A stretch of DNA of 64,000 bases from an uncultured virus (IMG/VR IMGVR_UViG_3300027708_001828) (IMGVR_UViG_3300027708_001828); one strand, 5' to 3'. Counted from the first letter of the stretch, positions 1 through 30,670 are shown. The notes: generated from the sequence alone by a model not told the origin. Numbers and translations: made by a program.

Positions 1-337
1 AGGCACTAGCGGATTTATTATGCAAATAGGCACTATCCCTCCACACCAAGATGCTACCTATGATATGACCGAGCCTCGCCGCTATATTATCTATATAACT
101 GATCCTGCATATAACACATTTCATCTTCTACACAAAGGTAAAAAGATTTGGCCGCAAATAGATCCTAAATATCGATGCTTTGCGTTCAACAATACAGACG
201 TTGAACATGCCGCAGACCCTACCAGTAGAACTAAAATATTGTTAAGTACTGTTGGTATAATGAATAAAGAAAAGCACGAAGCTTTATTAAAACGCAGTAT
301 AGAAAAATTTAAAGACAAGGTGATATATGGAGTTTGA
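1..337 (+). CDS. 2OG-Fe(II) oxygenase-like protein, C-terminal part (5' truncated by window edge)
   Basis: Frame is open back to base 2. HxD (PPHQD) and distal His (VEHAAD) have facial-triad-like spacing. Confidence 0.5.
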   Translation, partial: GTSGFIMQIGTIPPHQDATYDMTEPRRYIIYITDPAYNTFHLLHKGKKIWPQIDPKYRCFAFNNTDVEHAADPTSRTKILLSTVGIMNKEKHEALLKRSIEKFKDKVIYGV

Positions 338-1016
338 ATATTATTATAATCATGTACCCGGTGAAGAGCCTAGCAGGAATAATTTAATTTATACTAGTCT
401 TATAGATAAAAAGAAAAAGGTGTTTGTACAATGGTACTATAATGATACGGATTATCATCAAGGACAAAATGAAGTTGTTGATCCTAAACTGATGGAAGAA
501 AAGTTTCATAGAGAATTACATTTTTTGAGCAACATGGCTTGGCGCAATCCACATATGGTTCCAAAGATTATAGAAGTTAATGTTCCAGAGCGTAAAATAT
601 ATTTGGCTATCAATGGCGAGGATTTTTGGAATCAAGCAAAATGTAGCGTTGAAAATTATGACAACGTATTGCCTGACTGGCAAGAGCAAATGTTAGCAAT
701 ACTTCAAGCACACAAAGACAGAGGTTGGTATAAATTTAGTTTACATCCTAGCAGTTACTTTATTGTAGACGGTAAATTAAAAAGTATAAATTATTTTTTT
801 ACATACAGTAGCAATGAAGGCCCTATTAGCATCGCAGATCATGCAAGTCATATATACAGTGCAAGACAAGATATTATGCGAAAACAAGTTGACGCGATGG
901 GGTTAGACTGGGATGCTCCACAACCGCTAGATAAATTACAGCAGTTATGTTTTGAAAGTTTTAGAACAAATTATCCAGATGACTTTATAGCAAAGGCCAA
1001 AGCAATATATGATTAA
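327..1016 (+). CDS. Protein-kinase-like fold protein with degenerate catalytic motifs
   Basis: FHRELHFL..VPKIIE..IYL resembles an N-lobe. KFSLHPSS and KSINYF occupy the positions of HxDxxxxN and IDF. Confidence 0.45.
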   Translation: MEFEYYYNHVPGEEPSRNNLIYTSLIDKKKKVFVQWYYNDTDYHQGQNEVVDPKLMEEKFHRELHFLSNMAWRNPHMVPKIIEVNVPERKIYLAINGEDFWNQAKCSVENYDNVLPDWQEQMLAILQAHKDRGWYKFSLHPSSYFIVDGKLKSINYFFTYSSNEGPISIADHASHIYSARQDIMRKQVDAMGLDWDAPQPLDKLQQLCFESFRTNYPDDFIAKAKAIYD

Positions 1017-1803
1017 AGGAATTAATGGACAGCCGTATATAGACATGTCTCCATATATTGATATGTGTGCATTTGATCGTTTGCAACCTGAAATACTAAG
1101 AGGCTTTGCAGATGCACGTGAATATGCTAAAGAAGGCACTTGGATGAAACCTGCTTTTAAAATAGAGGATATGAGTTACATTCCAAATTGGAAACCTATC
1201 TATAAAGCAATTGAAGAATTTTTGGCATTGCCGGATGACAATCCGATTAAACAAGGCGGCATTGACTTGTACAGAGATTTCCAAGATTTTACAATACGCA
1301 ATAGATTTACGCGATATATCAAGATGGCTATGGGCGCATACGATCCTTACATCTATTATTTCCTATGGGAACAAGGTAGTTGGGACGATCGTGACTCACC
1401 GCGCAAACTCACACCCGAAGCTGAATATTTTCCGGGAGTAGTCAAATGGATTGAGGATATGATCGAACATCGTATTTTTGAAAGCATTGGCAGAGTTATT
1501 TTCTTTCACTGCGAAGCCGGTGGTATTCCGTTTGAACATAGAGATCTAGATGGCGAAAAAGGATTACAACAAGGGTATACCGATAATGTAAATGAATTCA
1601 TACACATACGCCCTAACACAAAGAAACCTTTTTACCTGTGGGATCCCGAAACACGTAATCACACATATATTAATAGTCGTGCCGCATGGTGGAATGACCA
1701 AGACTGGCATGGTGGTAATCCTATTATGGAGCAAAGTTACGGTTTACGTATTGACGGAAAATTTACAGAAGAATTTAAATTAACGATAGCCAGTAAAGGT
1801 TAG
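1009..1803 (+). CDS. 2OG-Fe(II) oxygenase-like protein
   Basis: FEHRD ... DWHGG ... LRIDG motif order. Confidence 0.55.
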   Translation: MIKGINGQPYIDMSPYIDMCAFDRLQPEILRGFADAREYAKEGTWMKPAFKIEDMSYIPNWKPIYKAIEEFLALPDDNPIKQGGIDLYRDFQDFTIRNRFTRYIKMAMGAYDPYIYYFLWEQGSWDDRDSPRKLTPEAEYFPGVVKWIEDMIEHRIFESIGRVIFFHCEAGGIPFEHRDLDGEKGLQQGYTDNVNEFIHIRPNTKKPFYLWDPETRNHTYINSRAAWWNDQDWHGGNPIMEQSYGLRIDGKFTEEFKLTIASKG

Positions 1804-2325
1804 CAAGTATTTGGGAACTAGTCCTATATTAGTTCCAGCATGCCAGCTGTGTATGTGGTTGTACTGATAGATGATTCCCTGCGGTTCATTATAATAAGCA
1901 TCCTGTTCGGTAACGAATACATGTCCCGGCGCAGGTTTACTTAAGAAACAAAAAAATCTCACTAGTTCGCCTAACTGCTTGTGCTCTTCTTCCCATGGAT
2001 TGATATCCCAATGCCATGGTGTACATTTACCAGGACGTAGCTCACTGACCCAACACATCAAAGGGTTGGCATTAACAGACATACTGATGGCAAGTTCATA
2101 GTTTTTATGGAAATGCAAACCAGATTGGTAATGTCGATATTCCACTGTATGTTCATTATATCCTGCAGAGGTCAGTGCGGCGGTTTGACTAATATACTCA
2201 TTGTAGTAAGGATTAGATTCTTCCAGTGTCATGTGACCGTGACTGGGTTCAACTTTGCGTGTTTTTATTTCAGCGATTAGACTTTCACACAAAGCCCCAG
2301 TGAGCGTAGCTACATATTTTTTCAT
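1780..2325 (-). CDS. 2OG-Fe(II) oxygenase, Asp/Asn beta-hydroxylase-like
   Basis: PGKCTPWHWD ... PGHVF ... WHAGTNIG; related to the paralogs at 14.9-18.5 kb. Confidence 0.65.
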   Translation of the reverse strand: MKKYVATLTGALCESLIAEIKTRKVEPSHGHMTLEESNPYYNEYISQTAALTSAGYNEHTVEYRHYQSGLHFHKNYELAISMSVNANPLMCWVSELRPGKCTPWHWDINPWEEEHKQLGELVRFFCFLSKPAPGHVFVTEQDAYYNEPQGIIYQYNHIHSWHAGTNIGLVPKYLLTFTGYR

Positions 2326-2987
2326 ATTATTTTAAACTCATTAGGTAAGATGCATTTCAACGAATTTAACTTGTCTTTTTCTATATTAAAATTTATTGTC
2401 ACATTGCCGTATGAAAATTTGTTTATAAATCCTAGTTTATTTGCTTTGTTAAGCCAGGTGCTTATAGTGTTATCAAAAATAAATCTAGCATCGTCGGCAT
2501 TTGCCACAGTTGAAGCTAAAGCCACGCTGACTGGATCTGTCAATTTATTCCTTTTTAGTAACTGTCTAACTACCAACTGTACTCTAGCACGACGACCAAA
2601 GTTAGTAGCAGTATGTAAAACTCCTGCATCCATGTCGTACCATATTCCGTCTTGTACTAATTTGTGTAGTTGTGGTGTCACTAGGTCGATCAAGTAACAT
2701 TGCTCGCCCAATATATTAAGATGATATCTATCATCTATATCTGCATGTGTTTGATAGCATTGATTAGGATCCAAAATAATAATCCTCGCTTCGCCCTTCG
2801 GTACTGGCAACGAGTCATACAAAGTTTGCCAAACTGTATCTTTGTACTCATCCTTTAATACCCACGAGTCGTAGAAGAAATCACCTGTTGACTGGTTAAT
2901 CGTAGTTTTCATACCACCAGTGGGCAACGAACTACAAGCCTCTTGAAATAACTTTGAATCTACTGTATAATCTGTTTGAGTAAGCAT
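2322..2987 (-). CDS. Asp/Asn beta-hydroxylase-like 2OG-Fe(II) oxygenase
   Basis: YQTHADIDDRYHLNI ... LHTATNFG..RVQLV. Start moved to ATG 2987, which avoids overlap with the divergent gene and follows TAAATA. Confidence 0.7.
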   Translation of the reverse strand: MLTQTDYTVDSKLFQEACSSLPTGGMKTTINQSTGDFFYDSWVLKDEYKDTVWQTLYDSLPVPKGEARIIILDPNQCYQTHADIDDRYHLNILGEQCYLIDLVTPQLHKLVQDGIWYDMDAGVLHTATNFGRRARVQLVVRQLLKRNKLTDPVSVALASTVANADDARFIFDNTISTWLNKANKLGFINKFSYGNVTINFNIEKDKLNSLKCILPNEFKII

Positions 2988-2991
2988 GAAA

Positions 2992-3021
2992 TATTTATGT
3001 GCTACTATTATAGTGTAAATA
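2992..3021. promoter_or_regulatory. Back-to-back TAAATA late-promoter-like motifs
   Basis: Minus-strand TAAATA at 2992-2997 is 4 nt from ATG 2987. Plus-strand TAAATA at 3016-3021 is 4 nt from ATG 3026. Confidence 0.6.
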
Positions 3022-3025
3022 AAAC

Positions 3026-3883
3026 ATGGAACGTATACGCATCGCAGAATCCTATGACGAAAAATGGCTAGAGTCCGAGCGGCCACAGCCGTTGATAGAT
3101 AATCATATCGAAGCATTAACTGCACAAGTTGTTAAGGGTGGAGTATTTAAGGATATTACAGATCAAGTATATATAGATTATAAAAAGGAAATGACCAGGT
3201 GGTTATTACAGTCTAAAATTAATACAGTTACAGGATTAGATGATTTTAATCGTGTAGATATTATAAACGGTTGTACACAGTTTATAGACACAGCATATAT
3301 GAACGGACCTGTACAAGTCTTAGCCGGTGACTATAGATATCATGCTAGACTAGGTAATTGTTATATACATCCTGGATTCCTAAGTGAAGAAAAGCAATTA
3401 GTAATTGCTTGGCCATTTCCTAGTACAGGTGACACTCACCCAAAGATGAAGGAGATATTAGATGAAGCGCAAGACAAGGGAATTGGTGTACATGTGGACG
3501 GTGCTTGGCTTACTTGCTGCCGCGGAATTGACTTTGATTTATCACATCCATCTATTAAGTCAGTTGCTATAAGTTTGAGCAAAGGACTGGGACTGGGATG
3601 GAACAGAATTGGCTTACGTTGGACTAAGAGTAAGGATGCTGATGCTGTTACAATACAAAATGACTTCAATATGAATCTTCGGGCTCCTGCTATGATCGGA
3701 CTACATTTTTTACGGAATCTAGAACCGGATTACTTATGGAACACCCACAGCGATAGATACTATAAAATATGTCATGACTTTGTACTCAAACCGACTAGAA
3801 GTATATACCTAGCACTACGCAACGGACAACCGGTTGGTGTTAGCCCATTGATAAGGTATTTAGAAAATGCAAACATTTCATGA
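3026..3883 (+). CDS. PLP-dependent enzyme (fold type I-like)
   Basis: VHVDGAW (PLP-binding Asp) and SLSKGLG (Schiff-base Lys). Confidence 0.65.
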   Translation: MERIRIAESYDEKWLESERPQPLIDNHIEALTAQVVKGGVFKDITDQVYIDYKKEMTRWLLQSKINTVTGLDDFNRVDIINGCTQFIDTAYMNGPVQVLAGDYRYHARLGNCYIHPGFLSEEKQLVIAWPFPSTGDTHPKMKEILDEAQDKGIGVHVDGAWLTCCRGIDFDLSHPSIKSVAISLSKGLGLGWNRIGLRWTKSKDADAVTIQNDFNMNLRAPAMIGLHFLRNLEPDYLWNTHSDRYYKICHDFVLKPTRSIYLALRNGQPVGVSPLIRYLENANIS

Positions 3884-4595
3884 TATAGACAGTGTGCGTA
3901 TTCATTTGCGCGACGACTGGAAAAATGTTGCTATCAGTGTAAGTGGGGGGGCAGACTCTGCGCTATTAGCATACCTAATATGTTCGTTAGTAACAGATCA
4001 AACTGTACATATAATTTCTCACAACCGAATGTGGAAGACTCGTCCATGGCAAAGCTATGATAGTTTTAATGTATATACTTGGCTGTTAACAAGATTTCCA
4101 AATATTAGATTTGTAAGACATATTAATTTTATAGCACCAGACATCGAGTACGGAAATATAGGCCCTAATCTAACTGACGAGTATGGCAAAAAGGTCAGCG
4201 GTGATAATATACAACAACGTGCTTACGCAGAATTTGTTTGTCACACTAACGACGTAGATGCATACTATAATGGTGTTACACGTAATCCTCGTCTAGCACA
4301 GTTCAATGGCATGCTAGAACGCGACATTGAACGTACCAACGATAATGAACATTTGGAATACATGATTCACATGGGAAGAGTTGCATGCCATCCGTTTCGA
4401 TTTGTAGACAAATCATGGGTTGTAAACAAATACAAAGAGTTAGGCATTATGGATTTGTTTGACATTACACGCAGTTGCGAGGGTGAGTTTGAAGATATAA
4501 ATTACACAAATTACAAAGCCGGGCAATACGTTCCCATATGTGGCGAATGTTTCTGGTGTAAAGAAAGGACCTGGGCAATTGAACAAAGCAAGTAA
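3867..4595 (+). CDS. QueC-like PP-loop ATPase with C-terminal Cys cluster
   Basis: SVSGGADS PP-loop; TRSC...CGECFWCKER zinc motif as in QueC. Confidence 0.7.
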   Translation: MQTFHDIDSVRIHLRDDWKNVAISVSGGADSALLAYLICSLVTDQTVHIISHNRMWKTRPWQSYDSFNVYTWLLTRFPNIRFVRHINFIAPDIEYGNIGPNLTDEYGKKVSGDNIQQRAYAEFVCHTNDVDAYYNGVTRNPRLAQFNGMLERDIERTNDNEHLEYMIHMGRVACHPFRFVDKSWVVNKYKELGIMDLFDITRSCEGEFEDINYTNYKAGQYVPICGECFWCKERTWAIEQSK

Positions 4596-5844
4596 AACAT
4601 TTTGTATGCACCCTTTTACAGGATTGGCTACTAGAGAAGACGGCGCCATACAGGCTTGCTGTCGTAGCCACCCTGTTGGTTTTATACAGCAGAACAGTTT
4701 GGAAGAAATTTGGAACAATGACACAATGAAACGTATACGTAAGTCAGTGCTTACTAACATACGTCCGCCAGAGTGCGAGCCATGTTTTAGACTAGAAGAT
4801 CAGGGCGTCGAATCCTTGCGAGAACGTCATATAAGCGGTGTAATCCCCGAAGCACGGGTCAACTTGTACCCCAATGCGTTAAATGCGTTAAAAGACGATT
4901 ACACTATGCCTTTTGAAATTCCTACGATGGAACTAAAGTTAAACAATCTGTGTAACCTCAAATGCCGCATGTGTCACCCAGGAGACAGCACTAGTTGGAA
5001 CGATTGGGATGTAGTAAAAAAGTACTATCAAGGTGAAGGTCAAGTTATTTTTAACATGGTTGAAGAACACGACTTAGAACGCAAGCCATTACTCGACAAG
5101 TTCAAAGATAATAAAGACTGGTGGACAAGTTTAGAAAAGAATTTGCCATATTTTAGACGTGTTGAGTTTGCCGGCGGCGAGCCTTTAATGGATCCACAGC
5201 ATTATCGTATATTGGACATGCTCAAGCCATACGGGCATCAAATTGAAATCAAGTATGCTACCAATGGCACAACATTGGGAATCAAAGGTGGAAGGAATAT
5301 ACATGACTATTGGCCTCATTTTAGAAGTGTTGCCGTTAACGTCAGCATTGACGGCATTGACAATGTTTACAATTACATTCGCGGCAACGGTGATTGGAAT
5401 CAGATTGTTACAAATATAAAAGAAATACAAACTATTCCAAATGTGAGTAGAGTAGTCGGCGCTGTAGCTGTACAAGTTGGTAATATTATGCATCTCGATA
5501 AAATGCTGAAATACTTTTTAGATGATTTAGGAATTGTATTTTATACCAATATGGTTAATCATCCCACGGTGCTGTCAACACAGGTACTACCTGCTCATCT
5601 CAAAGAACAAGCTACTATTAATTTAAATTTTGCTAAACTCTATGTACAAGATTACAAATTGGTAAAACAACATCCTATGTTATTAGATCTTACTCTAAAA
5701 CAGATAGACGGTGTTATTAATTATATGTGGGCAAATGATCATAGCGACCGATGGCAAGATTGCATAGCATTTAATCAAGCATTGGATAAAACACGCAATC
5801 AAAGTTTCTTTGATGTTATACCGGATTTTATAGATTATGCTTAA
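4540..5844 (+). CDS. Radical SAM protein with N-terminal SPASM/twitch-like domain
   Basis: CNLKCRMC, FAGGEP; N-terminal FCMHPF..CC..CEPC. Confidence 0.9.
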   Translation: MANVSGVKKGPGQLNKASKTFCMHPFTGLATREDGAIQACCRSHPVGFIQQNSLEEIWNNDTMKRIRKSVLTNIRPPECEPCFRLEDQGVESLRERHISGVIPEARVNLYPNALNALKDDYTMPFEIPTMELKLNNLCNLKCRMCHPGDSTSWNDWDVVKKYYQGEGQVIFNMVEEHDLERKPLLDKFKDNKDWWTSLEKNLPYFRRVEFAGGEPLMDPQHYRILDMLKPYGHQIEIKYATNGTTLGIKGGRNIHDYWPHFRSVAVNVSIDGIDNVYNYIRGNGDWNQIVTNIKEIQTIPNVSRVVGAVAVQVGNIMHLDKMLKYFLDDLGIVFYTNMVNHPTVLSTQVLPAHLKEQATINLNFAKLYVQDYKLVKQHPMLLDLTLKQIDGVINYMWANDHSDRWQDCIAFNQALDKTRNQSFFDVIPDFIDYA

Positions 5845-6733
5845 GGTAACTAGTCGCTGGCCTCATCAGAACTCTGTCAAGATTGAATGGAATCTTGGAA
5901 AACGTTGCAACTACGATTGCAGTTATTGCCCGAGTGAGATACACGACAACTCCAGTCAGCATACTGACATAGAAATACTTAAGAGTTCTGTGGATCAATT
6001 AATGAAACTAGGAAAACCTATTCGTATTAGTTTTACAGGAGGCGAGCCTACTGTGCATCCCAAGTTCGAAGAGTTGGTGAACTACTGTAAGAATCAAGGC
6101 GTAAGTTGGGTGAGCGTTACTACCAATGGCACACGCAAAGATGATTGGTATGCTAATCTACGTGCAGATCAGATTGTGTTTAGTGTACACATGGAGTACG
6201 ATGTCCGACGAGTTTTAAATACAATCGTAAATGTTAACGAATACTTTGCAGGAAAAGTAATGGTACATGTCATGGCGCATCAGGATCATATGAAGCGCAC
6301 TAGATATATTGCAGGTGCATTGGCCGCAAGTGCTGTTCCACACGCTGTCCGTAGAGTACGTTGGACACAAGGTGATCATGATCTGTTTGACGATATGCGG
6401 TATGGAGCGGACGACCTAGCATGGGTCAAAGAATACGAGACCACTGTAGAAGGTAATTGTATCATTGATGATACTAAAAAGATGCATGCCAACGATGTTA
6501 TTAAACTGCATCTAAACAAGTACAAAGATTGGACTTGTAACGCAGGTATAGAAAGTCTAATGATAAATTGGGATGGCGATGTACACAGAGCCACTTGTAG
6601 AGTTGGCGGTAGTTTGGGCAATATTTATGATGGTAGTTTTGTTGTGCCTAGTCAACCTGTAGTTTGTGATCGTAACTTCTGTACCTGTGCGGCAGACATT
6701 CCACTTACAAAATATGCGTCTAACAAATCTTAA
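5837..6733 (+). CDS. Radical SAM protein with C-terminal SPASM/twitch domain
   Basis: CNYDCSYC, FTGGEP, TTNG; CNAG...C...CDRNFCTC. Confidence 0.9.
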   Translation: MLKVTSRWPHQNSVKIEWNLGKRCNYDCSYCPSEIHDNSSQHTDIEILKSSVDQLMKLGKPIRISFTGGEPTVHPKFEELVNYCKNQGVSWVSVTTNGTRKDDWYANLRADQIVFSVHMEYDVRRVLNTIVNVNEYFAGKVMVHVMAHQDHMKRTRYIAGALAASAVPHAVRRVRWTQGDHDLFDDMRYGADDLAWVKEYETTVEGNCIIDDTKKMHANDVIKLHLNKYKDWTCNAGIESLMINWDGDVHRATCRVGGSLGNIYDGSFVVPSQPVVCDRNFCTCAADIPLTKYASNKS

Positions 6734-7523
6734 TCCTTCTAAGTACAAAAGGTTCTTTGCCTTTGGTTGTAGTTTTACGAAATATTCATGGCCAACTTGG
6801 GCAGATATTATAGGCCAAGATGTGCCTGTTTATCAAAATTGGGCTACACCCGGTGCTGGCAATCATTATATATTTAATAGCATTATGGAAGCCGATGCAC
6901 GATATAAATTTAATAACAATGACTTAGTGATAGTAATGTGGAGTTGTAAAGAGCGAGAAGATCGATACTCTAATAACAAATGGCTGAGTGACACAAATTT
7001 ATCACAAGAAAAAACTTACGGTAAAAAATGGGTTAAAAACTTTGGTACAGATTTGCGCGGCTTTCTAATTAGAGATCTCGGTTACATAGCAGGAGCACAA
7101 AGTACAATACAAAAAGCTAGTTGGGAACAGTTTTGTCTGAACCCGTTAACAAACATCGATGATACTAAAGCAGTATTAGATGGAGTTGACTTAGATTCTA
7201 TTACTGAAGAGATTGGAAGAGAATATTGGATTAAGGCATTTGATAAACTATGCACCGGCAGTGATATTGATCCATACCTTGATAATGCAGATGTTATAGA
7301 AACTTATAAGGATTTATTTTTAAATATTAACAAATCGCTTGAAGGTAGATGGACTTTTGAGTATGTTAAAAATCGTGTAGCACCAAACAATGATAACCAT
7401 CCCACTCCTTTAGAAGCATTGGAATTTTTAAATAATGTATGGCCTGGCAATTCGTTAAGTATTGAAGCACAGAACCATGCAAGACAATGGAACGTTAATC
7501 ATTCGTTAATTACAAGACTTTAG
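6714..7523 (+). CDS. SGNH/GDSL-like protein
   Basis: FAFGCSFT block I and DNHP block V; ATG 6714 chosen as start. Confidence 0.55.
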   Translation: MRLTNLNPSKYKRFFAFGCSFTKYSWPTWADIIGQDVPVYQNWATPGAGNHYIFNSIMEADARYKFNNNDLVIVMWSCKEREDRYSNNKWLSDTNLSQEKTYGKKWVKNFGTDLRGFLIRDLGYIAGAQSTIQKASWEQFCLNPLTNIDDTKAVLDGVDLDSITEEIGREYWIKAFDKLCTGSDIDPYLDNADVIETYKDLFLNINKSLEGRWTFEYVKNRVAPNNDNHPTPLEALEFLNNVWPGNSLSIEAQNHARQWNVNHSLITRL

Positions 7524-10989: not shown

Positions 10990-11013
10990 GTGTGCAGGGT
11001 GGTTAAATATACC

Positions 11014-12892: not shown

Positions 12893-12894
12893 AC

Positions 12895-16664: not shown

Positions 16665-16666
16665 AA

Positions 16667-19812: not shown

Positions 19813-19982
19813 TAGCACACTACAAACACAATAAAAAATACATAGAGCTTGTTACTAGCCTATATGTATTTTCTGAAGCACAATCTACAGGGTCACCTAC
19901 CCATTACGATGCAACTACTTGGCAATGGGGTGACAAAACTATTTTAATTCAAGAAGTAGGAATTCATCCTGAGATTGAATAA
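19782..19982 (+). CDS. Small hypothetical protein
   Basis: 66-aa ORF filling the gap at the end of the operon. Confidence 0.45.
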   Translation: MSKFKECNSVIAHYKHNKKYIELVTSLYVFSEAQSTGSPTHYDATTWQWGDKTILIQEVGIHPEIE

Positions 19983-20935: not shown

Positions 20936-20975
20936 AGTATAAGTAATGTAAGCATATTTATAGTGGAAATTAATA

Positions 20976-22544: not shown

Positions 22545-23137
22545 TCAAAGTCCGTAACAACTTATGTAAAATTAAGTTAACGACACCGTATAGTTACGCA
22601 CAGTTGTTAGCCGAATTTGAAAAAGAAGAATGGGTTAACCATGCTGACTATGAAGAACGTGCTGGTGATCCACACCTGTGCAGGTCGGCACTTCCTTATC
22701 CTAAAAGTATTATCTTACAGGAAATTGTAAACTACTTGTCGTCAGACGAAGTTAAAAGAAAGATCATAGACACTATGTATGAGCTATTTCCAGGAATACA
22801 AAATATGTGGGATGGTTGGTCGAACAATAAAATGTTTAATTCAACGCTTTGGGGAGGACAATTTCTCAAAGACGAACCTGGTTTTATAATTGAACCGCAT
22901 ATTGATACTAGACTACAAATATTAACATCACTAGTCTATTTTATAGAAGACAACGATCCTAAACAAGCAACTGTGTTTTACACAGACAAGAATCGTTCCG
23001 ATCCGTGGACAGCTGAAACAGGTGTTGGGGTGGGGACTTTGCATATTAACGATTATGATGTATGGCACGAAGGTTCTAACAGATCGGATAAAGATCGATA
23101 CCTCATGAGCTTAGGACTAATTGTAAATGTTAAATGA
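22529..23137 (+). CDS. 2OG-Fe(II) oxygenase
   Basis: IEPHID ... VWHEG...DRY. Confidence 0.7.
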   Translation: MDFEIIKVRNNLCKIKLTTPYSYAQLLAEFEKEEWVNHADYEERAGDPHLCRSALPYPKSIILQEIVNYLSSDEVKRKIIDTMYELFPGIQNMWDGWSNNKMFNSTLWGGQFLKDEPGFIIEPHIDTRLQILTSLVYFIEDNDPKQATVFYTDKNRSDPWTAETGVGVGTLHINDYDVWHEGSNRSDKDRYLMSLGLIVNVK

Positions 23138-23543
23138 ATGGATATCTAGAATTTCAACACCTAAGGAAGAACTAGGTGGAATGAGTGTGTGTCCTTATGC
23201 TAAAAGTGCAGAGTATGAATTAATCGAAACTGACGGTAGTGATATAAATCCCCCACCCTGGGACTTTGAACTTATTGTATATAAACTACCCGATAGTTAT
23301 TCTATAGAAGAGCTCAACGATATAGCAGTAGAATACAATAACTTATTTCCGGAGATGGTGTTTTTGCCCGATCATAAAGATAAAGCAACATTTATAAACG
23401 GCATTCCTACTAACAACGGTGTATATAATCTTATGCTATGTCAATGGCGTGATAATTTATCAAAGGCTCGAGAAAAATTATCTAATACTGCCTATTATAC
23501 CTACTGGGCAGAAGACTATTTGAAAGAAATATTAAACACATGA
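23127..23543 (+). CDS. Hypothetical protein (CPYAK motif, DUF1415-like)
   Basis: W...VCPYAK ... PDH ... LCQ. Confidence 0.5.
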   Translation: MLNEWISRISTPKEELGGMSVCPYAKSAEYELIETDGSDINPPPWDFELIVYKLPDSYSIEELNDIAVEYNNLFPEMVFLPDHKDKATFINGIPTNNGVYNLMLCQWRDNLSKAREKLSNTAYYTYWAEDYLKEILNT

Positions 23544-24544
23544 TCTGGACTGAATGGGATCCTTTAGAGTCAATTATTGTCGGTGACTGTTTTACCGATA
23601 GCGACCATCCTGGATTAAAAACGATCTTAAAAGAAACTAAAGAAGATCTAAATACTCTAGCAAATTACTTAACTAGTTTAGGTATAAAAGTCTATCGACC
23701 TAACGTTGCGCATAACTCTGCAATGGCTCCTATTGTTCCAAGAGATCAATACCTAGTGTATGGCGAAACAATATATCAAACATACACATCAATGCCTGAT
23801 AGATTCAATGATAGTTTAAACTACTTAGGCATATTTAGAGAGCTATTTCAACAAGGTCATAACTGGATCAGTCAACCGCCGCCTGTGCTTGCACCTTTAA
23901 ACTCTACAGACAAGTGGTGGAATGATGGTAAGCACATCTATCACGATCTAAACAAAGATAAAATACTGTGGCATACTGCCACCATGTTTAAATGTGGAGA
24001 TGCATTAATAACTAACAAACAAGGTCCAGGAACGCTACTTGGACTAGAATGGATGAAGCGTAACTTGCCCGGTACACGTATTATTGAAAACAATAAGTGG
24101 GGCCACATTGATCACGGGTTTTTTATGATTGACGATGATACTGTTATTTGTATCAACCAGTCTTGGGTTCCCGAAGTGTTACAATCTAAAACACTTATTG
24201 AAATTGAAGAATATATTGAAGTTTTAGATTATAGTAAAATTGTAGAATCTTTTTCTACTACCAGTGGTACACTAAGTCAAGAGTGGATAGACAAATGGCT
24301 CAACGAGTGGAAGGGGTATGTGCAAGATGTTGCGTTTGACAGTAATGTGCTGGTAATAGATTCTAAGAATATCTTGTTCTCTAGTGAACAACCTAAGCTG
24401 TTTAATTTTTTAAAACAAAAAGGTATTACATGCCACGTAGTAAACATGCGTCATAGCATGTTTTGGGAAGGCGGAATACATTGCCTAACACTAGATGTTA
24501 GTCGACGTGGAGAGAAGCGGCGAGTCGTTCCTGTAACTTTGTAA
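23540..24544 (+). CDS. Amidinotransferase (glycine/inosamine-phosphate amidinotransferase family)
   Basis: EWDPLE..IVG, PRD, HID, GGIHCLTLD with the catalytic Cys. Confidence 0.85.
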   Translation: MIWTEWDPLESIIVGDCFTDSDHPGLKTILKETKEDLNTLANYLTSLGIKVYRPNVAHNSAMAPIVPRDQYLVYGETIYQTYTSMPDRFNDSLNYLGIFRELFQQGHNWISQPPPVLAPLNSTDKWWNDGKHIYHDLNKDKILWHTATMFKCGDALITNKQGPGTLLGLEWMKRNLPGTRIIENNKWGHIDHGFFMIDDDTVICINQSWVPEVLQSKTLIEIEEYIEVLDYSKIVESFSTTSGTLSQEWIDKWLNEWKGYVQDVAFDSNVLVIDSKNILFSSEQPKLFNFLKQKGITCHVVNMRHSMFWEGGIHCLTLDVSRRGEKRRVVPVTL

Positions 24545-25652
24545 AATATTCTGTATCAGCAATCAAAGGCAGTACTAACATAAGGTTATCCTGCCCATTA
24601 TTCCATACTCCTATATGCAAACCGTTGTCATAGAATGTTTGTTCAGGAGTTGACTTAATATCTATATCAAACATTAATCCGTAGTTTCTAAAAGTTAACC
24701 CCATACTAGTAAAAAGTCTGGTCGCAGTATCGACAGTTGCAGTGTATTGATTTAATAAATCTTCTGTTTCTAATATTTCTAAATATTTTAAAGTTGAATA
24801 AATTCCACTTAATGAAAATGTATAGGTGAACCCGTGTCCCAAAAACTCATGCTTTACTACTTCGTTAACACGATCGCTTACTAGCGTAGCACTTAAAGGA
24901 AAGTATCCCCCAGTCAATGCCTTGCCCATGGTAAAAATATCAGGATCCAACTCAGTATCGAATCCAACAAACTTACCTGTCTTGCCACCACACATGGCAA
25001 TATCATCTAAAATAAAAATCACATCGTGATCTCTGCATGTTTGTCTAAGTTCTCGCCAAAAATCTTTAGTATACTGTTTAAGACCCTTATTCCACGAGCA
25101 TGTTTCCATAACTAGGCAACAGGCTGTTTTAGTTTTAACAGCGTCTATTAATTCTTCTTGATTCAAAGCAATACAATTTTCAACAGGATGTTTGGTCATA
25201 TACTCTAATTGGCCGATGCCGGATGTTAGGTAAGTACTTCCGTGGTAAGAATTTTTAACACCGAGTATAGTGTGCCTAGGGTTACCTTTAGCTTCGTGAT
25301 ATATTTTGGCTAATTTAATTGCACCCTCGACTGCGTCACTTCCACTTAGGGCAAATATACTTCTATAACCACCAGTGATATCATATAGTTTATTTGTTAG
25401 ATCTATAACTGCCTGATTAGTGGTCATGTATTCGCCGCCAGCGAATGGATTGTCTAACATTTTATCAGCAACATAGTGTATAATGTCTTTACGATCAAAT
25501 CCTAGTAAAAAACAGCCGCAGGATCCTAGACTTAAATCTATTAAATCTTTGCCGTTTTCTACAAATCCAAATCTTGTATAATTATCAATCTTTCTTGCGT
25601 TAGAATGATCGTAGTTGTAGTTAAAAGGGAACAAGAGCTTTAAATTTTTCAT
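24498..25652 (-). CDS. Class III PLP aminotransferase
   Basis: SGSDAVEGAIK, SYHGST, ILDDI..GGKTG, PDIFTMGKALTGGY. Confidence 0.9.
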   Translation of the reverse strand: MKNLKLLFPFNYNYDHSNARKIDNYTRFGFVENGKDLIDLSLGSCGCFLLGFDRKDIIHYVADKMLDNPFAGGEYMTTNQAVIDLTNKLYDITGGYRSIFALSGSDAVEGAIKLAKIYHEAKGNPRHTILGVKNSYHGSTYLTSGIGQLEYMTKHPVENCIALNQEELIDAVKTKTACCLVMETCSWNKGLKQYTKDFWRELRQTCRDHDVIFILDDIAMCGGKTGKFVGFDTELDPDIFTMGKALTGGYFPLSATLVSDRVNEVVKHEFLGHGFTYTFSLSGIYSTLKYLEILETEDLLNQYTATVDTATRLFTSMGLTFRNYGLMFDIDIKSTPEQTFYDNGLHIGVWNNGQDNLMLVLPLIADTEYFTKLQERLAASLHVD

Positions 25653-25656
25653 ACAG

Positions 25657-25674
25657 TATTTAACAAGGTAAATA
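25657..25674. promoter_or_regulatory. Back-to-back TAAATA late-promoter-like motifs
   Basis: Minus TAAATA at 25657-25662 is 4 nt from ATG 25652. Plus TAAATA at 25669-25674 is 7 nt from ATG 25682. Confidence 0.6.
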
Positions 25675-25681
25675 TGGTGTC

Positions 25682-27598
25682 ATGAAAAATGTCTATCTTA
25701 TACAAACTGAAATTACTTCCGGACCCTCTAATGAGCACTACCTACCATTCAGTGTAGGATGTATTTGGGCCTATGCAAACCAATTTGATTATGTGAAAAA
25801 TAACTATAAATTGCAAGATGTTATTTGGCGGAGAGATAGACAAAAAAATGTAATTGAAAAGATCATCGACCCTAGTATCATTGGATTTAGTTGCTACGTA
25901 TGGAATCATAAATGGAATCTAACCTTAGCTAAGAAATTAAAAGAACGTTTTCCAAACTGTCTAATAGTGTTTGGTGGTCCTAGTGTTAATGAAGAATGGC
26001 TCAAATACGATTTTATCGATGTTGCAATGTTTGGCGAGGGAGAAGTTGCATGGGCTAATCTTTTAAAGATGAATCTTAATAACGAGACTATTCCGAGATA
26101 TTGGAATAACCCGAGACAAACAGATATTGAAAATTATCCTAGCCCTTACACTACAGGGTTCTTTGATAAAATTATTGCAGACAATCCAGATATTAGTTGG
26201 TTTATGATGCTAGAAACTAACAGAGGATGTCCTTATCACTGTACGTTTTGCGGCTGGGGAGCCGACTATCTTAACAAACTAAAAAACTTTAACCTACATA
26301 GGGTTGAGGAAGAAATCAAATGGGCTATAACACATAACATACATTGGATGTTTGTGATCGATGCTAACTCAGGTATAATGAAAGAACGTGATGTCGAAGT
26401 AGCGTGGATGATCCGCAGAGCTATAGAAGCACCCAACAGCAAAATTAGACGTGTAACCTTTAACCATGCTAAAAATTTAAATGAGCATTGTTTTGAAATG
26501 GAAAAGATTATTCAAGCATGGACTTACGGTTTAGAAATGGCTATACAAAGCATGCACCAGCCCACACTAGATGCTGTGAAAAGAATTAACATGGGTATGA
26601 ACAATTTAGAACGTGCTTATGCCTTATGCCGTAAACACGGTATTAGATACTACACAGAGATGGTTTTAGGTTTACCTTTAGAAACCAAGGACACTTATAT
26701 TAATGGCCTAATGAGATTAATGGAATTAGGACAACACGACAGCGTTAAAACTTATCCTGCTACTGTTATTCCTAATAGTGAAATGGACAGTGAAGAGTAT
26801 AGAAACAAATACGGAATTAAGTTGATATATCCTAAAGATATGTATCGTAGTCCCGAAGAACGCATATGGGACGACGAAGATAGTAGTCATGAAAATATTG
26901 CCATGGTGTCGAGCACAAATACTGCTACCAGCCAAGATATTGCAGATTCATTAGCGTACAGTTGGATGATGAGTCAATTTCATTATTTAGGAATAACACA
27001 ACTTACTTCACGGTACTTGTATGAAATGCATAATGTTCCATACCGTCAATATTATGATGCATTATACAACGCAATTAAGAACGACATTATAGGCGGTCCT
27101 ATACTAAATGATGTAGAAGAAATATTTGTAAATTATTTCACTTACGGTGAAATGCCTGTAGGTGAAAAATGGAAGAACGTAGTTGCATTGACTATGCCCG
27201 AAAGTTACGGTATGGACGATATATTTGAAAACAAGAATCATTTTATAGACCTCGGAGTTACCGTTGGAAACTTATTTCATACTATAGATCCAAGTGTCAT
27301 AGAATTACAGTATGCTTTTATGTTGGATGAAAGCAAATCATATCCATTCATTCTAGAATCAGATATAGATATTGATAGATGGGAACGTTTATCATGCTCA
27401 TATTCGGTTAATAGGCGTTACATGGTTAGTCACATGCATGACCAAATGTATCAAAAATATTTGCTTAAAACTGATATTGCAAATATTAATAATCCTTATG
27501 TTGAAACCGACATAGAAGATTCATATAAAGGCAATAAGATCTCAGTCATTCCTATTTTACCTATACCTACAACTACCGCTAGTGGGAGAGTTATGTAA
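25682..27598 (+). CDS. Cobalamin (B12)-binding radical SAM protein
   Basis: N-terminal B12 domain (GFSCYVWN..FGGP..GEGE); ETNRGCPYHCTFC; GLPLET. Confidence 0.9.
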   Translation: MKNVYLIQTEITSGPSNEHYLPFSVGCIWAYANQFDYVKNNYKLQDVIWRRDRQKNVIEKIIDPSIIGFSCYVWNHKWNLTLAKKLKERFPNCLIVFGGPSVNEEWLKYDFIDVAMFGEGEVAWANLLKMNLNNETIPRYWNNPRQTDIENYPSPYTTGFFDKIIADNPDISWFMMLETNRGCPYHCTFCGWGADYLNKLKNFNLHRVEEEIKWAITHNIHWMFVIDANSGIMKERDVEVAWMIRRAIEAPNSKIRRVTFNHAKNLNEHCFEMEKIIQAWTYGLEMAIQSMHQPTLDAVKRINMGMNNLERAYALCRKHGIRYYTEMVLGLPLETKDTYINGLMRLMELGQHDSVKTYPATVIPNSEMDSEEYRNKYGIKLIYPKDMYRSPEERIWDDEDSSHENIAMVSSTNTATSQDIADSLAYSWMMSQFHYLGITQLTSRYLYEMHNVPYRQYYDALYNAIKNDIIGGPILNDVEEIFVNYFTYGEMPVGEKWKNVVALTMPESYGMDDIFENKNHFIDLGVTVGNLFHTIDPSVIELQYAFMLDESKSYPFILESDIDIDRWERLSCSYSVNRRYMVSHMHDQMYQKYLLKTDIANINNPYVETDIEDSYKGNKISVIPILPIPTTTASGRVM

Positions 27599-28758
27599 TG
27601 TTAATGGGCTTTAATCAAACTAACATAGACCGATTACTAGCAAGTATAAATGGTACAGTTTTAGATCCAACAGTAAGCCTATGCCATCATTGCCATAGAC
27701 ATATACCAGCATGGCGCTACCATAAAGATAATCAGGTGTTTATAGCCAAGTCATGTCCCATACATGGTATTAGCCATCATATGATCGAATCTGACTATGA
27801 GTTTTATGCTAATCTATATTACACCCAGGATAATCCAGATTTTAATTTTAATGGCGGAGTACTTATCGAAGGTAGTGACCGCTGTAATTTAGAATGCCCA
27901 CATTGTTACCATTTACCAGAAAACGATGCCCGCGACCCTTCTATAGAAGAATTGCTCGATCAAATACGAGATATGCCGGTAGGCGAGGATGGAGTACATA
28001 GAATCATCCTCGCCGGTGCTGAAAGTACCTTACGCAAAGACTTTCCAGAATTGATAACAGCTATCCGTGAGTTAGATCCCGAAATGGATGTTAGTGTAAT
28101 GACTAATGGCATACGTTTCAATGACAGCGATTTTATTCATAAATGTGTTGAAGCTGGACTTGCAGGTGTTAACATTGGGCTTAATCATCCAAGTTACATC
28201 GATCACGAAACTGTAAGACGTAAACAAGTTAGTGCTATTGAAAACATGCACCGTGAAGATATCAAGATAGGTTACATTAGTTATACTATGGTAGACTTCA
28301 GTGAGCTTGATTACATACTAACTGAGATTACTAGTAATCCTTGGACTCCTAAAAATTTCCGCATACGTAATGGTGCAGAAATAGGACGTAATGCCAGCAC
28401 CGAACAACCGTTTGTTAGCAACTTATACAAACGTGCGGAGCAATGGTGCAAGGATCATAGTAAACAGTTTGAACGAATCATAGAAGCAGACAATAATATC
28501 TATCATGTTATGGTTAAGATTGAAGATAAAATTGTGCGATTAATCAGCTGGTGCGATGAAACCAATATTGATATGGAAGAATTGCGTAGCGGACCTTGGT
28601 GTAACTTTGTACCCGACGGTATTACAAACTTCTTACATCAGATTATACGCAGAGATGTGTTTAAAAATAAAGGACTAGCCTTACCGGATAGCCCTCCTAG
28701 TCGATATAAATTTAATCGCACACCCGATAAGTCAAAACTTAATTTGCTAAATCTATAA
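27598..28758 (+). CDS. Radical SAM protein with N-terminal CxxC...CxxH metal site (Tes/MJ0619-like)
   Basis: TVSLCHHC...KSCPIHG; CNLECPHC; MTNG. Confidence 0.8.
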   Translation: MLMGFNQTNIDRLLASINGTVLDPTVSLCHHCHRHIPAWRYHKDNQVFIAKSCPIHGISHHMIESDYEFYANLYYTQDNPDFNFNGGVLIEGSDRCNLECPHCYHLPENDARDPSIEELLDQIRDMPVGEDGVHRIILAGAESTLRKDFPELITAIRELDPEMDVSVMTNGIRFNDSDFIHKCVEAGLAGVNIGLNHPSYIDHETVRRKQVSAIENMHREDIKIGYISYTMVDFSELDYILTEITSNPWTPKNFRIRNGAEIGRNASTEQPFVSNLYKRAEQWCKDHSKQFERIIEADNNIYHVMVKIEDKIVRLISWCDETNIDMEELRSGPWCNFVPDGITNFLHQIIRRDVFKNKGLALPDSPPSRYKFNRTPDKSKLNLLNL

Positions 28759-29095
28759 AGCCATTTGACCTATCAAGGAATTTAGTTTTAATATTTAAAA
28801 TATTAAACTTATTCAAAACTTTAACAACATCTGGTACATTAAATTTTTTACAACTATAAACATCTAGTTGTATTAGACCAGTATCCCAAGTGTGCATGAC
28901 AATATGACTAGTAGTTATAGCCATGAGTGCTGTGTATCCTTCGTTATCTAAAACTTCTGATCTATAGACATATGGCCCTCCTAGTATTTCCATGTCAATA
29001 GTTGATACAATATCTAGTAGAATGTTTTTAACATCTAATTCAGACAATTGTGTTTCAGCAGTACCTTGTATTAATAGGTGCAAATGATCTAACAC
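28739..29095 (-). CDS. speD: S-adenosylmethionine decarboxylase proenzyme
   Basis: HLHLLI; TSHIVMHTW pyruvoyl cleavage site; LDVYSCK. Confidence 0.85.
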   Translation of the reverse strand: MLDHLHLLIQGTAETQLSELDVKNILLDIVSTIDMEILGGPYVYRSEVLDNEGYTALMAITTSHIVMHTWDTGLIQLDVYSCKKFNVPDVVKVLNKFNILNIKTKFLDRSNGFIDLAN

Positions 29096-29689
29096 TTAAG
29101 GCTTCCTTCCTATGATCATGTAACGTGTGTACAGGGGTAATTTCATTTCGCCGCCCCAAAGAAAATGTAATCCACAAGTTTCCTTAAATTCATCAAATGA
29201 TTTATGCCACCGCACATGCTCGGGGATATTATAATCATTACTTTGGATAATAATCAAACTACCGTTAGGCATTCTATCCAACCATTTATCGTATTGTGCT
29301 TGTGTTAAGTGTTCACAGCTAGTATTAATAATAATATCTGCAACAGAAATTACATCGCACATATCTGCCGTATACGCTTTGAACCGACCTTCAATTTCTT
29401 CACCCTTGTTCATTAGCGTAGCAATAGGTTCGCAGGTTGGATCAATGTCAATACTGCGAATAGTAGTAATGGGAATGTTGCTCTGAAATAACATGCTGGC
29501 AAGTGTACCAACCCAGCCGCCGAAGATGTCTATGCTAGATGCAAAATGCACATGCTCATCTAGACAATCAATCAACCATTCTTTGCTTTTTAATTGCCCC
29601 GACCAAAAGGCATCCATAGTACGCATAGGGTCCGGGCTTTGACGGATGGCCTGCATCCAATGGTGTAAATGGTTTGTATCTATCTGCAT
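29096..29689 (-). CDS. Class I SAM-dependent methyltransferase-like protein
   Basis: IFGGWVG, SIDID, ADM, INTSCEH. Confidence 0.7.
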   Translation of the reverse strand: MQIDTNHLHHWMQAIRQSPDPMRTMDAFWSGQLKSKEWLIDCLDEHVHFASSIDIFGGWVGTLASMLFQSNIPITTIRSIDIDPTCEPIATLMNKGEEIEGRFKAYTADMCDVISVADIIINTSCEHLTQAQYDKWLDRMPNGSLIIIQSNDYNIPEHVRWHKSFDEFKETCGLHFLWGGEMKLPLYTRYMIIGRKP

Positions 29690-30636
29690 TTTGGTATCTT
29701 GCTGTCCGCACTACTAACACATCTAGTAGTCACGCATTTTTGTGGCACAGAAAACAAAGTAAATTTTTCTATCGTGCCCAGTGCGGCTTCGTGGCAACTG
29801 TAAGCACGTTTGACTTCCGTACCTTTTATTATAACACTCTGATAACCTGCATTACAAGTCCAATTGGCAAATTGATTAAACCCCAGTGCATTAAACCGTT
29901 CTGCTTGATCTATAAAATAATTTTTATCACCATCCATTAAACGGATTTGATAACCTTCCTGCTGTTCAAAATCGTTTTGCATTATATCAACCATCTCAGC
30001 TGTGTAGCCTTCCACTATGGCGGTGGCACTGTCATTGCTTTGTGGTTTAAGTGTTACATTAATTCCACGAGCTCGAAATCGTTCACAGCGTTCTAGTGTT
30101 TCAAAGAACAGTTCTGGCACCATAACTTGATTAACAGTTACATGAACCCGCTCGTTCATTAACTGTAAACACTTGTCACCGAACTCGTGCTCCTTGGCGA
30201 ACTCTGCATGAAAGCTGGCTGTAATACTGCGGCGCTGTAGACAATCAGTGATGCTACACCAGTTTTTCCACCAGCTGGGTCCCGGACTCAAATTGGTAGT
30301 CATATGTATACTTTGGTAGGGACTTTCTAATTCATCTATATGTTTGATCAATTCGGGCAACTGTTTGTACGCAGTAGGTTCACCTCCTGAGAAGCTCCAG
30401 TGAAATTGGGTGAATCCGTTCAAACGAGCTTGACGTTTTATCTCGTCGACTGTAGTCTTATAGACTTCTAAACTTTGGTAATCCAAATTGTCGCTTCGGG
30501 CATAGGGCCAACAATAGCTACATTTGTAATTACAAAATCTACCTAGGATCCAACTTATGTTAAATAATGGGCGATCCAACATTGTTTGTTGCCCAAAATG
30601 CGTTATGTCTTTGAAAGGAATGATTGCGAAGTTCAT
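29680..30636 (-). CDS. Radical SAM protein with C-terminal twitch domain
   Basis: CNYKCSYC, FSGGEPT, TTN; CNAG...C...C....C. Confidence 0.9.
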   Translation of the reverse strand: MNFAIIPFKDITHFGQQTMLDRPLFNISWILGRFCNYKCSYCWPYARSDNLDYQSLEVYKTTVDEIKRQARLNGFTQFHWSFSGGEPTAYKQLPELIKHIDELESPYQSIHMTTNLSPGPSWWKNWCSITDCLQRRSITASFHAEFAKEHEFGDKCLQLMNERVHVTVNQVMVPELFFETLERCERFRARGINVTLKPQSNDSATAIVEGYTAEMVDIMQNDFEQQEGYQIRLMDGDKNYFIDQAERFNALGFNQFANWTCNAGYQSVIIKGTEVKRAYSCHEAALGTIEKFTLFSVPQKCVTTRCVSSADSKIPKCR

Positions 30637-30664: not shown

Positions 30665-30670
30665 ATACAT

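Follow-up and report, generated by a model that had tools for sequence, protein, structure and literature searches.

We analyzed a 64,000-nucleotide stretch of DNA (the window) from an uncultured virus (IMG/VR IMGVR_UViG_3300027708_001828), in which positions 1-30,636 hold an island of tailoring-type enzymes. The island consists of two blocks, modules A and B, with a variable oxygenase/esterase array between them; its genes are intact and under purifying selection, and the conservation of the blocks suggests a pathway rather than a grab-bag of genes. We tentatively favor, as a possibility still short of likely, a phage-encoded multi-step pathway whose substrate is of the sugar or aminocyclitol type. 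An earlier note had proposed a late-expressed system decorating virion proteins, glycans or nucleic acid.

Module A was delimited by searching IMG/VR with one of the island's radical S-adenosylmethionine (SAM) enzymes, the N_Twi protein encoded at 8493-9905, which recovered at least 87 viral relatives with 58-100% identity. Our counts refer to the 30 related loci with full 10-kb flanks around the N_Twi gene, and a count of 0/30 for an accessory gene refers to those flanks only. The 13 genes of module A encode six radical SAM enzymes (N_Twi proteins in two cases), a PP-loop protein, a protein of pyridoxal phosphate (PLP) enzyme fold, a methyltransferase-fold protein, three cupin/2-oxoglutarate (2OG) oxygenase-like proteins and a kinase-fold protein, each found in 19-30 of the 30 loci and in conserved order. 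A first unit runs from the radical SAM gene 29680-30636 through the methyltransferase-like gene 29096-29689, the radical SAM gene 9898-10989 and the N_Twi gene 8493-9905 to the radical SAM gene 7510-8496; after a strand switch come the radical SAM gene 5837-6733, the N_Twi gene 4540-5844, the PP-loop gene 3867-4595 and the PLP-like gene 3026-3883; and two more strand-switch units follow, one with the cupin genes 2322-3125 and 1780-2325, the other with the 2OG oxygenase gene 1009-1803 and the kinase-like gene 327-1016. The pair at 29096-30636 adjoins 9898-10989 in relatives; in this phage about 18 kb lie between them.

The B12-binding radical SAM enzyme of module B found 24 loci in IMG/VR, four identical to the window and 20 others. 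In these 20 it stands side by side with a zinc-ribbon radical SAM enzyme, accompanied by an aminotransferase in 17/20 and a pentein in 15/20, and the pair of methyltransferase-like and radical SAM genes lies downstream in 18/20. Gene order in both modules is kept among relatives whose proteins are only 58-92% identical. The homologs are therefore not scattered without co-occurrence, an outcome that the earlier note had named as damaging to its proposal: comparison of synteny shows blocks A and B conserved across related phages. Catalytic death, another of its worries, has no sign in the radical SAM and cupin motifs, which are intact; orthologue pairs have pS of 0.57-0.83 (saturated) and pN of 0.05-0.25, with dN/dS of 0.04-0.12 in the seven of 12 pairs where dS could be computed.

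The contig is a real large myovirus (>265 kb), neither bacterial nor chimeric as the earlier note had feared it might be. The window corresponds, in reverse orientation, to positions 13076-77075 in a virus record of 133,387 bp, which at the end checked matches positions 132,013-265,402 of a 265,680-bp IMG/VR record, G001 (linear; CheckV completeness 72%). The phage origin holds because the additional 132 kb of G001 carry genes for tail sheath, tail tube, large terminase and head-closure proteins, and for UvsX/UvsY, SSB, helicase and primase, and because proteins identical to those of the window are present in four separate IMG/VR records. G001 also encodes two giant tail fibers (2925 and 2706 aa), and the window's terminal ORF is a gp9/10-type baseplate gene (61902-63998) that is cut by the window end; its continuation is probably a reading frame of 3709 aa (L002:1924-13053(-)), which would give a joined protein of about 4400 aa. 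A search for the Gp23 major capsid family (PF07068) had no match in the 265.7-kb record, and its control matched nowhere either. The stretch occurs, whole or in part, in freshwater metagenomes of 14 studies, mostly in small shares, and a megablast search with 25 kb gave no nucleotide-level relative in a set of 50,697 public phage records.

Thirty-seven open reading frames (ORFs) of the island were scanned with Pfam, PHROGs and NCBIfam. The eight radical SAM enzymes counted in the earlier note are confirmed: the CxxxCxxC motif is intact in 8/8 and seven pass the PF04055 cut-off, while the eighth, the module B protein 25682-27598(+), falls short of it (25.6 against 29.5) and yet carries a B12-binding domain (Pfam 35.8 bits). 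It is nearest to the KedN5-type C-methyltransferases, scoring 155 bits with NF033712, below the cut-off of 700. Its module B neighbor, 27598-28758(+), bears an N-terminal HMPTM-type zinc ribbon (Pfam 65.4 and 48.8 bits). In module A, 4540-5844(+) and 8493-9905(-) belong to the N_Twi family NF033640 (334 and 378 bits; cut-off 170), the former with a CNLKCRMC motif and an N-terminal twitch/SPASM-like cysteine cluster. Three small enzymes, 5837-6733(+), 7510-8496(-) and 29680-30636(-), reach 54.8, 48.5 and 48.3 bits with Pfam; the first is present in 30/30 loci and the last is headed by a TAAATA at 30643-30648. The sixth, 9898-10989(-) (31.1 bits), is homologous to gp080, gp083 and gp084 of Campylobacter phage CP220 (tblastn E 1e-13 to 3e-17).

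A third N_Twi protein, encoded outside the island at 44436-45797(+) (346 bits against the same cut-off), makes three family members in the window; N-terminal cysteines are invariant in the alignment A5 of the family, and the Pfam SPASM match covers residues 22-82, before the radical SAM core. The family is large (8588 representative clusters with E≤0.001, of which 1022 reach E≤1e-30) and includes fused relatives of 640-1400 aa (P0074, P0077, P0137, P0196, P0206 and P0214); the fusion partners in P0077, P0196 and P0206 had no PDB match.

The remaining module A genes are characterized to different depths. The kinase-like call is upheld for 327-1016(+), found in 26/30 loci: its profile matches TTK in the PDB (3.5e-4), its model (pLDDT 91) finds kinases with Foldseek (E 2e-6) and the VIA Z is 12.6. 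Protein kinases are expected to have an Asp at the HxD site; here the site is an invariant K-x-S-x-H-P-x-S, with an invariant Ser in place of the Asp. An Fe/2OG-oxygenase fold with an HRD...H motif is predicted for 1009-1803(+) (25/30 loci; pLDDT 79), whose top Foldseek matches are all 2OG oxygenases (VIA Z 10.8, 141 residues aligned). Two cupins follow: 1780-2325(-), with an HWD motif, is a BLAST paralog of the 14904-18531 array discussed below, and 2322-3125(-), with an HAD motif, has a weak AspH likeness (Pfam Asp_Arg_Hydrox E 0.13; 24/30 loci). The PLP-fold, aminotransferase-like 3026-3883(+) is a lead only: an invariant SLSK..G..R.G stands in its alignment (26/30 loci), its ESM Atlas neighbors are Aminotran_1_2 in 17% of members or named class V, and homologs occur in Bdellovibrionota arrays. 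Likewise, the QueC-like ATPase and the methyltransferase of the earlier note survive as leads. The former, the PP-loop ATPase 3867-4595(+) (21/30 loci), weakly resembles QueC and NAD synthase (phrog_1550 1e-4; NCBIfam NAD synthase/TilS 1e-3; Pfam QueC E 0.032, below cut-off); the latter, 29096-29689(-) (22/30 loci), resembles Rossmann methyltransferases by an alignment motif and by its ESM Atlas neighbors (Methyltransf_31/PCMT/NAS).

In module B, 23540-24544(+) is pentein/amidinotransferase-like, as the earlier note proposed, by homology to CP220 gp086, annotated Pentein (tblastn 24.8% over 88%, E 3e-15); it ends in a C-terminal GGIHCLT and has homologs in Bdellovibrionota. The class-III (omega) aminotransferase 24498-25652(-) (Pfam Aminotran_3, 152 bits) is the one of two supposed PLP enzymes that is secure, 3026-3883 being the other. 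The module is edged by a cupin/2OG-like protein, 22517-23137(+), with an HID...H motif, which recurs beside module B, and by a small protein of phrog_10325, 23127-23543(+).

The array between the modules is variable. About a dozen 2OG oxygenase-like proteins had been claimed for the island, and an HxD...H pattern is indeed present in 12/12 cupin/2OG candidates (HxD in 9/9 cupins tested); only 12086-12892(+), an Asp/Asn beta-hydroxylase-family oxygenase with homologs in Bdellovibrionota arrays, passes the Pfam cut-off (PF05118 1.1e-9, 38.7 bits against 22.6), and 1009-1803 is supported by fold. Six small cupins are BLAST paralogs: 1780-2325 in module A, four in tandem on the plus strand at 14904-15620, 15604-16143, 16140-16664 and 16667-17221 (pairwise 1e-25 to 1e-40; H..D..GH..H..N invariant), and a fifth array member at 17887-18531(+). 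Against the AspH-like group they reach an hhalign probability of 50% (E 1.6e-4); alignment A3 reached 5.9% against the same group, and a fold search was used in its place. Two further cupin/2OG-like proteins are called from motifs: 13571-14155(+) (HID...H) and a C-terminal part at 2-337(+) (HQD...H), the start of which lies upstream of the window, its remainder in L001:3-305(-). The three SGNH-like proteins of the earlier note show their motifs, namely FGCS...GAGN in 6666-7523(+) (6/30 loci), an N-terminal FGDS in 14152-14916(+) and FGCS in 17208-17999(+), but only the last has a Pfam match (Lipase_GDSL E 0.022). The nitroreductase 12889-13587(+) (31.6 bits against a Pfam cut-off of 23.5) and the SAM decarboxylase 28739-29095(-) (AdoMet_dc 47.8 bits; phrog_3125) are as described at the outset, and the claimed short-chain dehydrogenase/reductase (SDR) shrinks to a 169-aa Rossmann fragment, 18521-19030(+), with a match to the N-terminal part of Pfam Epimerase only (26.8 bits).

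The supposed halogenase, 20976-22544(+), belongs to the flavin-dependent (tryptophan) halogenase family (PF04820, 313.6 bits, 3e-93; phrog_2928), and we assign it to the family only: GxGxxG is present (GGGTAG at residue 7), whereas the WxWxIP motif of flavin-dependent tryptophan halogenases is not, with no W.W anywhere and GWRFKIG at its expected place. Two array proteins, 10957-12159(+) and 19027-19812(+), have no Pfam, PHROGs or NCBIfam match; hhalign shows no relation of the former to the methyltransferase-like alignment A1, and its true start is likely the ATG at 11014, which comes after a TAAATA at 11004-11009. The gene 19964-20935(-), which the earlier note took for an embedded fiber-like gene, belongs to a conserved family of 25 homologs, all unnamed; the fiber identity has no support, as there is no phage match, no PDB match and a weak tail-fiber PHROG match in just 1/20 family members. 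Weak Pfam matches in the island to Diphtheria_R (0.051), Ntox27 (0.039) and COBRA were dismissed as chance level, and profile searches against PDB sequences with alignments A1, A2, A3, A9 and A10 gave nothing useful.

The island's units would be read from promoters like those of T4 late genes. TAAATA is under-represented in the whole window (56 seen against 82 expected), and yet it lies within 40 nt upstream of 11/24 transcription-unit heads compared with 2/50 internal genes (binomial P about 2e-14; background 1.5% of 40-nt windows). Seven of these heads are in the island, with an eighth if 10957-12159 starts at ATG 11014, and the two virion structural genes of phrog_6002, at 57099(-) and 57169(+), have a TAAATA upstream as well, so that the earlier observation of a motif shared by island operons and virion genes stands. 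The gene 19964-20935 is headed by TATAAATA (20955-20962), which we take to be the full T4 late consensus. This placement of TAAATA fits late expression.

We suggest that the substrate of the pathway may be a small carbohydrate-type molecule, such as a nucleotide-sugar, an aminosugar or an aminocyclitol, on which the enzymes would carry out C-methylation, amination or amidination, hydroxylation and (de)acylation, and that the product may go to a surface structure of the virion or the infected cell. The B12-dependent radical SAM enzyme of module B would probably be the C-methylase, and the array joining modules A and B would add small oxygenases, SGNH-type esterases, the halogenase-family flavoprotein, the nitroreductase and the SAM decarboxylase. 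We favor a carbohydrate because the third N_Twi gene heads a nucleotide-sugar operon in the same window (47212-53602(+)), which Pfam and NCBIfam resolve into an RmlC-like epimerase, three NDP-sugar SDR enzymes, a split thiamine pyrophosphate E1 alpha/beta-like pair and a paralog without a Pfam domain; because related genes in cultured phages adjoin sugar genes, sugar-transferase-fold genes following the CP220 block and the pentein pair of cyanophage S-SCSM2R following KdsB, KdsA and a GT24 gene; and because two GT2 genes lie inside a Bacteriovoracaceae array (L149) and an E1beta-like gene lies near module B in 6/24 loci. Two paralogs inside the operon, 45794-47203 (469 aa) and 48368-49726 (452 aa), are members of a 41-member family without a Pfam domain, homologs of which lie near module A in 6/80 viral loci; a glycosyltransferase reading of the two from a motif likeness is not claimed, and the idea that C-branched sugars are products of pyruvate dehydrogenase E1-like pairs found no confirmation in the literature consulted.

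Several observations weigh against this reading. Pfam, PHROGs and NCBIfam detect neither a glycosyltransferase nor a nucleotidyltransferase nor a scaffold-forming cyclase in the island, and BLAST with nine sugar queries found glycosyltransferase-like genes in 0/80 module A and 0/24 module B viral loci; the 19/78 bacterial loci with such a gene are a count without a background control. Annotated Bdellovibrionota arrays stand mostly among housekeeping genes (rpoD, dnaG, lon, nuo), not sugar genes. AspH-family enzymes are known to act on protein and lipid substrates, and in the N_Twi relative P0137 two N_Twi-like stretches enclose tetratricopeptide (TPR) repeats, a fusion that would fit a protein as partner. 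No NF033640 member has an assigned reaction, and a literature search pairing N-terminal twitch with radical SAM was empty. Finally, two lake metatranscriptome runs gave 17 and 30 short Logan contigs over 17 and 24 of the 30 bins in window positions 1001-21000 (46/47 at ≥99% identity to the window), in which DNA carry-over is possible.

The relatives of the N_Twi enzymes extend to bacteria. A profile search of bacterial contigs, one genome per species, found 149 relatives (78 loci kept), mostly in metagenome-assembled genomes of Bdellovibrionota, several on contigs of 0.8-3 Mb, at 24-47% identity, and one in Reichenbachiella faecimaris DSM 26133; some loci are arrays with homologs of the PLP-like, AspH-like and pentein genes and other radical SAM enzymes. 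A bolder proposal, which we regard as unlikely in this full form, is that modules A and B are a radical SAM-driven pathway that large aquatic phages have in common with predatory Bdellovibrionota, both of which attack Gram-negative cells, with a heavily C-methylated, amidinated, hydroxylated aminosugar- or aminocyclitol-like product, or equivalent marks on a late protein, used at the attacker-prey interface. If true, the product would be, for example, a surface decoration or an envelope-modifying effector, and N_Twi would be a new class of carbohydrate-acting radical SAM enzyme. About one tenth of the recovered genome is spent on eight radical SAM enzymes, which catalyze some of biology's hardest reactions, and about 20 helper enzymes, and the core blocks are kept by purifying selection in dozens of uncultured phages; identifying the product would give a chemistry to the large orphan family N_Twi and reveal which compound is made by Bdellovibrio-type predators and large aquatic phages when they attack.

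A protein rather than a carbohydrate might be the target, an alternative we hold to be doubtful: radical SAM, AspH-type, halogenase-family and kinase-fold enzymes would hypermodify one or more virion or late proteins after translation, much as in ribosomally synthesized and post-translationally modified peptides (RiPPs), only on a full-length protein, for which 19964-20935 is a candidate. Peptide maturases typically have twitch/SPASM auxiliary clusters, and a good many RiPP-maturase models of NCBIfam match the island's enzymes, weakly and all far below cut-offs. An AspH family is present, a Mtd_N fiber gene flanks the island and P0137 is fused to TPR repeats; moreover, the pentein and a 2OG oxygenase of S-SCSM2R are reported to have been detected in purified virions. 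The candidate substrate has its full TATAAATA and its family lies a few kb upstream of module B in 4/20 loci, but only in those 4/20, and in 0/30 module A loci. A classical RiPP is argued against by the lack of room for a precursor gene: intergenic gaps of at least 40 nt in the island are confined to 19813-19963, 20936-20975 and 30637-30795, and the ORFs of at least 20 aa that overlap 19813-19963 are unsupported, although a precursor elsewhere in the genome is possible. The aminotransferase, amidinotransferase, SAM decarboxylase and B12 C-methylase would also better fit small-molecule chemistry.

Such chemistry need not involve a carbohydrate. A diffusible or intracellular compound such as a modified polyamine, a guanidino compound or an antibiotic-like metabolite, conditioning the host or suppressing competitors, seems to us rather unlikely. 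It would draw on the SAM decarboxylase gene, which adjoins that of the methyltransferase/NAS-like fold protein, and on the omega-aminotransferase and pentein enzyme, and it recalls the "antibiotic synthesis genes" as which the authors of the S-SCSM2R study read similar genes. Yet the SAM decarboxylase accompanies the modules in only 2/20 module B and 0/30 module A loci, the island has no exporter, and Pfam and NCBIfam find in it no decarboxylases or synthases of known polyamine routes. More broadly, no nonribosomal peptide synthetase, polyketide synthase or transporter family is found among the 37 island ORFs, in agreement with the earlier note.

Whether there is a single pathway at all can also be asked, since variable islands of cyanomyoviruses and pelagimyoviruses can be low-GC, hypervariable dumps of independently useful auxiliary genes; published examples of such islands hold radical SAM cassettes, 2OG oxygenases and halogenases. 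The island here has a GC content of 0.34-0.39 against 0.40-0.44 in its flanks, its middle genes 12889-14916 and 19027-19812 were found only in records identical to this phage, and a tRNA-like element sits at its edge. The persistence of module A and B gene order described above, the co-occurrence of key genes in bacteria too, the tight gene overlaps in shared operons and the strong purifying selection all make a dump improbable. Hypermodification of DNA or RNA bases, of the 7-deazaguanine or thymidine type and by kinase, PLP, radical SAM and PP-loop chemistry, is very improbable: although that mix presumably recalls thymidine hypermodification pathways, QueC-like PP-loop matches occur and a 6-pyruvoyltetrahydropterin synthase/QueD-like gene lies at 58724-59209, the QueC match is below cut-off (E 0.032), the oxygenases are AspH-like and not TET/JBP-like, and the 265.7-kb record, 72% complete, has neither the tRNA-guanine transglycosylase TGT/DpdA (PF01702) that would, with a true QueC, mark a Dpd/Que system, nor the ThyA-family hydroxymethylase (PF00303) of thymidine hypermodification, nor ThyX (PF02511), in searches with control matches in 14/14, 10/14 and 5/14 genomes, respectively, so the nucleic-acid option of the earlier note is disfavored.

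The setting of the island adds several features. On the genome the island reaches about 3 kb past window position 1, with AspH-like, fatty-acid desaturase and weakly sulfotransferase-like ORFs and the Mtd_N fiber gene at the end; its flanks hold this one Mtd_N gene and a tRNA array, with 22 tRNA genes about 7-12 kb upstream of the window start (L001:7195-11862). Five further tRNAs and a permuted tmRNA lie at L003:475-2930. At the right edge of the island ARAGORN calls a 96-nt putative tRNA-Pro(ggg) at 30671-30766(+), without an Rfam match at gathering score, so that the call may be false or the tRNA unusual, perhaps with an intron; the Rfam scan found no family at gathering score in the window and therefore gives no riboswitch clue. 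Two independent DNA metagenome runs, X7 and X9, cover the flanking parts of the island without about 11.0-16.3 kb (X9 nothing beyond 11,005; X7 a trace to about 11.7 kb), a stretch covered in probable source-lake runs and RNA libraries. No bridging contig was seen in X7 or X9, and the gap may be a strain-level presence/absence difference.

Elsewhere, a second enzyme island lies directly behind the giant tail fibers at about 32.5-48.4 kb of G001 (L164:12553 to L165:8430), where four genes of the Trp-halogenase family stand together with those for a ferrochelatase, a NUDIX protein, three proteins of phrog_1644 and six or more 2OG oxygenases of phrog_81; with the one in the studied island the genome total is therefore five halogenase-family genes. 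Fe-S assembly genes, two IscA-type and one NifU/IscU-type (window 61548-61898; L004:6322-7003), a superoxide dismutase (60691-61251) and a peroxiredoxin (40087-40614) could supply or protect the many Fe-S enzymes. The genome further carries a curli-type secretion set of CsgG, CsgF, two curlin-repeat proteins and a FecR-like protein (L003:10696-15414; G000 C1 about 100.7-105.4 kb), a host-like row of bilin reductase, heme oxygenase, ClpS, Hsp20 and the C-terminal part of DnaK (L003:17059-19998), and genes for ClpP (window 40617-41207), a Bax1-I membrane protein (38280-38978), UvdE and an ATP-dependent DNA ligase. At L003:5743-9690 a 680-aa CHASE2-sensor nucleotide cyclase adjoins a GT4 glycosyltransferase, outside the island at L003:7793-8794, and a RimK-type ATP-grasp ligase.

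How does the island compare with known systems? The mix of twitch-type radical SAM enzymes, B12-radical SAM C-methylase, amidinotransferase, kinase, aminotransferase, SDR and 2OG oxygenase resembles aminoglycoside and aminocyclitol clusters, a further point for the carbohydrate reading. Those clusters have a scaffold-forming cyclase (2-deoxy-scyllo-inosose (DOI) synthase or inositol-phosphate synthase) and a glycosyltransferase, whereas no aminocyclitol-type cyclase or glycosyltransferase is present in the Pfam results for 133 window and G000 ORFs, the GT4 gene aside, and the island proteins are not members of characterized aminoglycoside-type families, the B12-binding enzyme with its sub-threshold KedN5 score being an example.

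Among cultured phages N_Twi has no close homolog, only four records matching at 22-31% identity, and one of the nearest counterparts of the island is found in the Campylobacter myovirus CP220. Timms et al. (2010; PMC2853527) describe 11-12 radical SAM genes in CP220/CPt10, five of them in one interchangeable module. CP220 gp080, gp083 and gp084 are homologous to 9898-10989 at 22-25% identity, gp081 and gp099 to the island's small radical SAM enzymes and gp086 to the pentein; CP220 and the island thus share radical SAM families and a pentein in one block, at low identities (22-34%). CP220 differs in having no N_Twi homolog, and directly behind its module stand a PAP2 phosphatase gene and two genes of nucleotide-diphospho-sugar-transferase fold, which the island does not have. 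In the 25 kb of CP220 examined, island and sugar-operon queries for the B12 radical SAM enzyme, the cupins and the halogenase had no match at E 1e-3. The size of the island, called unusual for a phage by the earlier note, is so relative to cultured phages, but not relative to uncultured jumbo phages, with at least 87 relatives, or to CP220 with its 11 radical SAM enzymes. In S-SCSM2R it is the pentein/2OG pair that follows KdsB, KdsA and GT24 directly.

Variable islands of marine phages share part of this repertoire. In the text of Sullivan (2010; PMC3037559), cyanomyoviruses carry a prnA-type halogenase and numerous 2OG oxygenases, speD (a point for the polyamine alternative above) is common, and the phrase "radical SAM" is absent; in that from Zaragoza-Solas (2020; PMC7029224), pelagimyophage variable islands hold radical SAM cassettes, lipopolysaccharide genes, a curli operon and AspH, and a host recognition cluster forms a variable island in the structural region, between VrlC and the neck gene gp14, with tail fibers. 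Like those phages, this phage has a curli operon, AspH-like genes, ho1 and bilin reductase. Its equivalent of the classical-type island is the second region, after the giant fibers and before sheath-stabilizer and neck genes (G001 about 32-48 kb; VrlC and gp14 not identified as such), and not the studied island, which is some 140 kb distant and in which radical SAM families predominate. Already known, then, are multi-radical SAM modules in CP220/CPt10, variable-island radical SAM cassettes and 2OG/halogenase/speD sets; our literature search turned up no published account of the two-module architecture, of the role of N_Twi or of the link to Bdellovibrionota. CP220 and S-SCSM2R, as culturable distant relatives, make the question testable at the bench.

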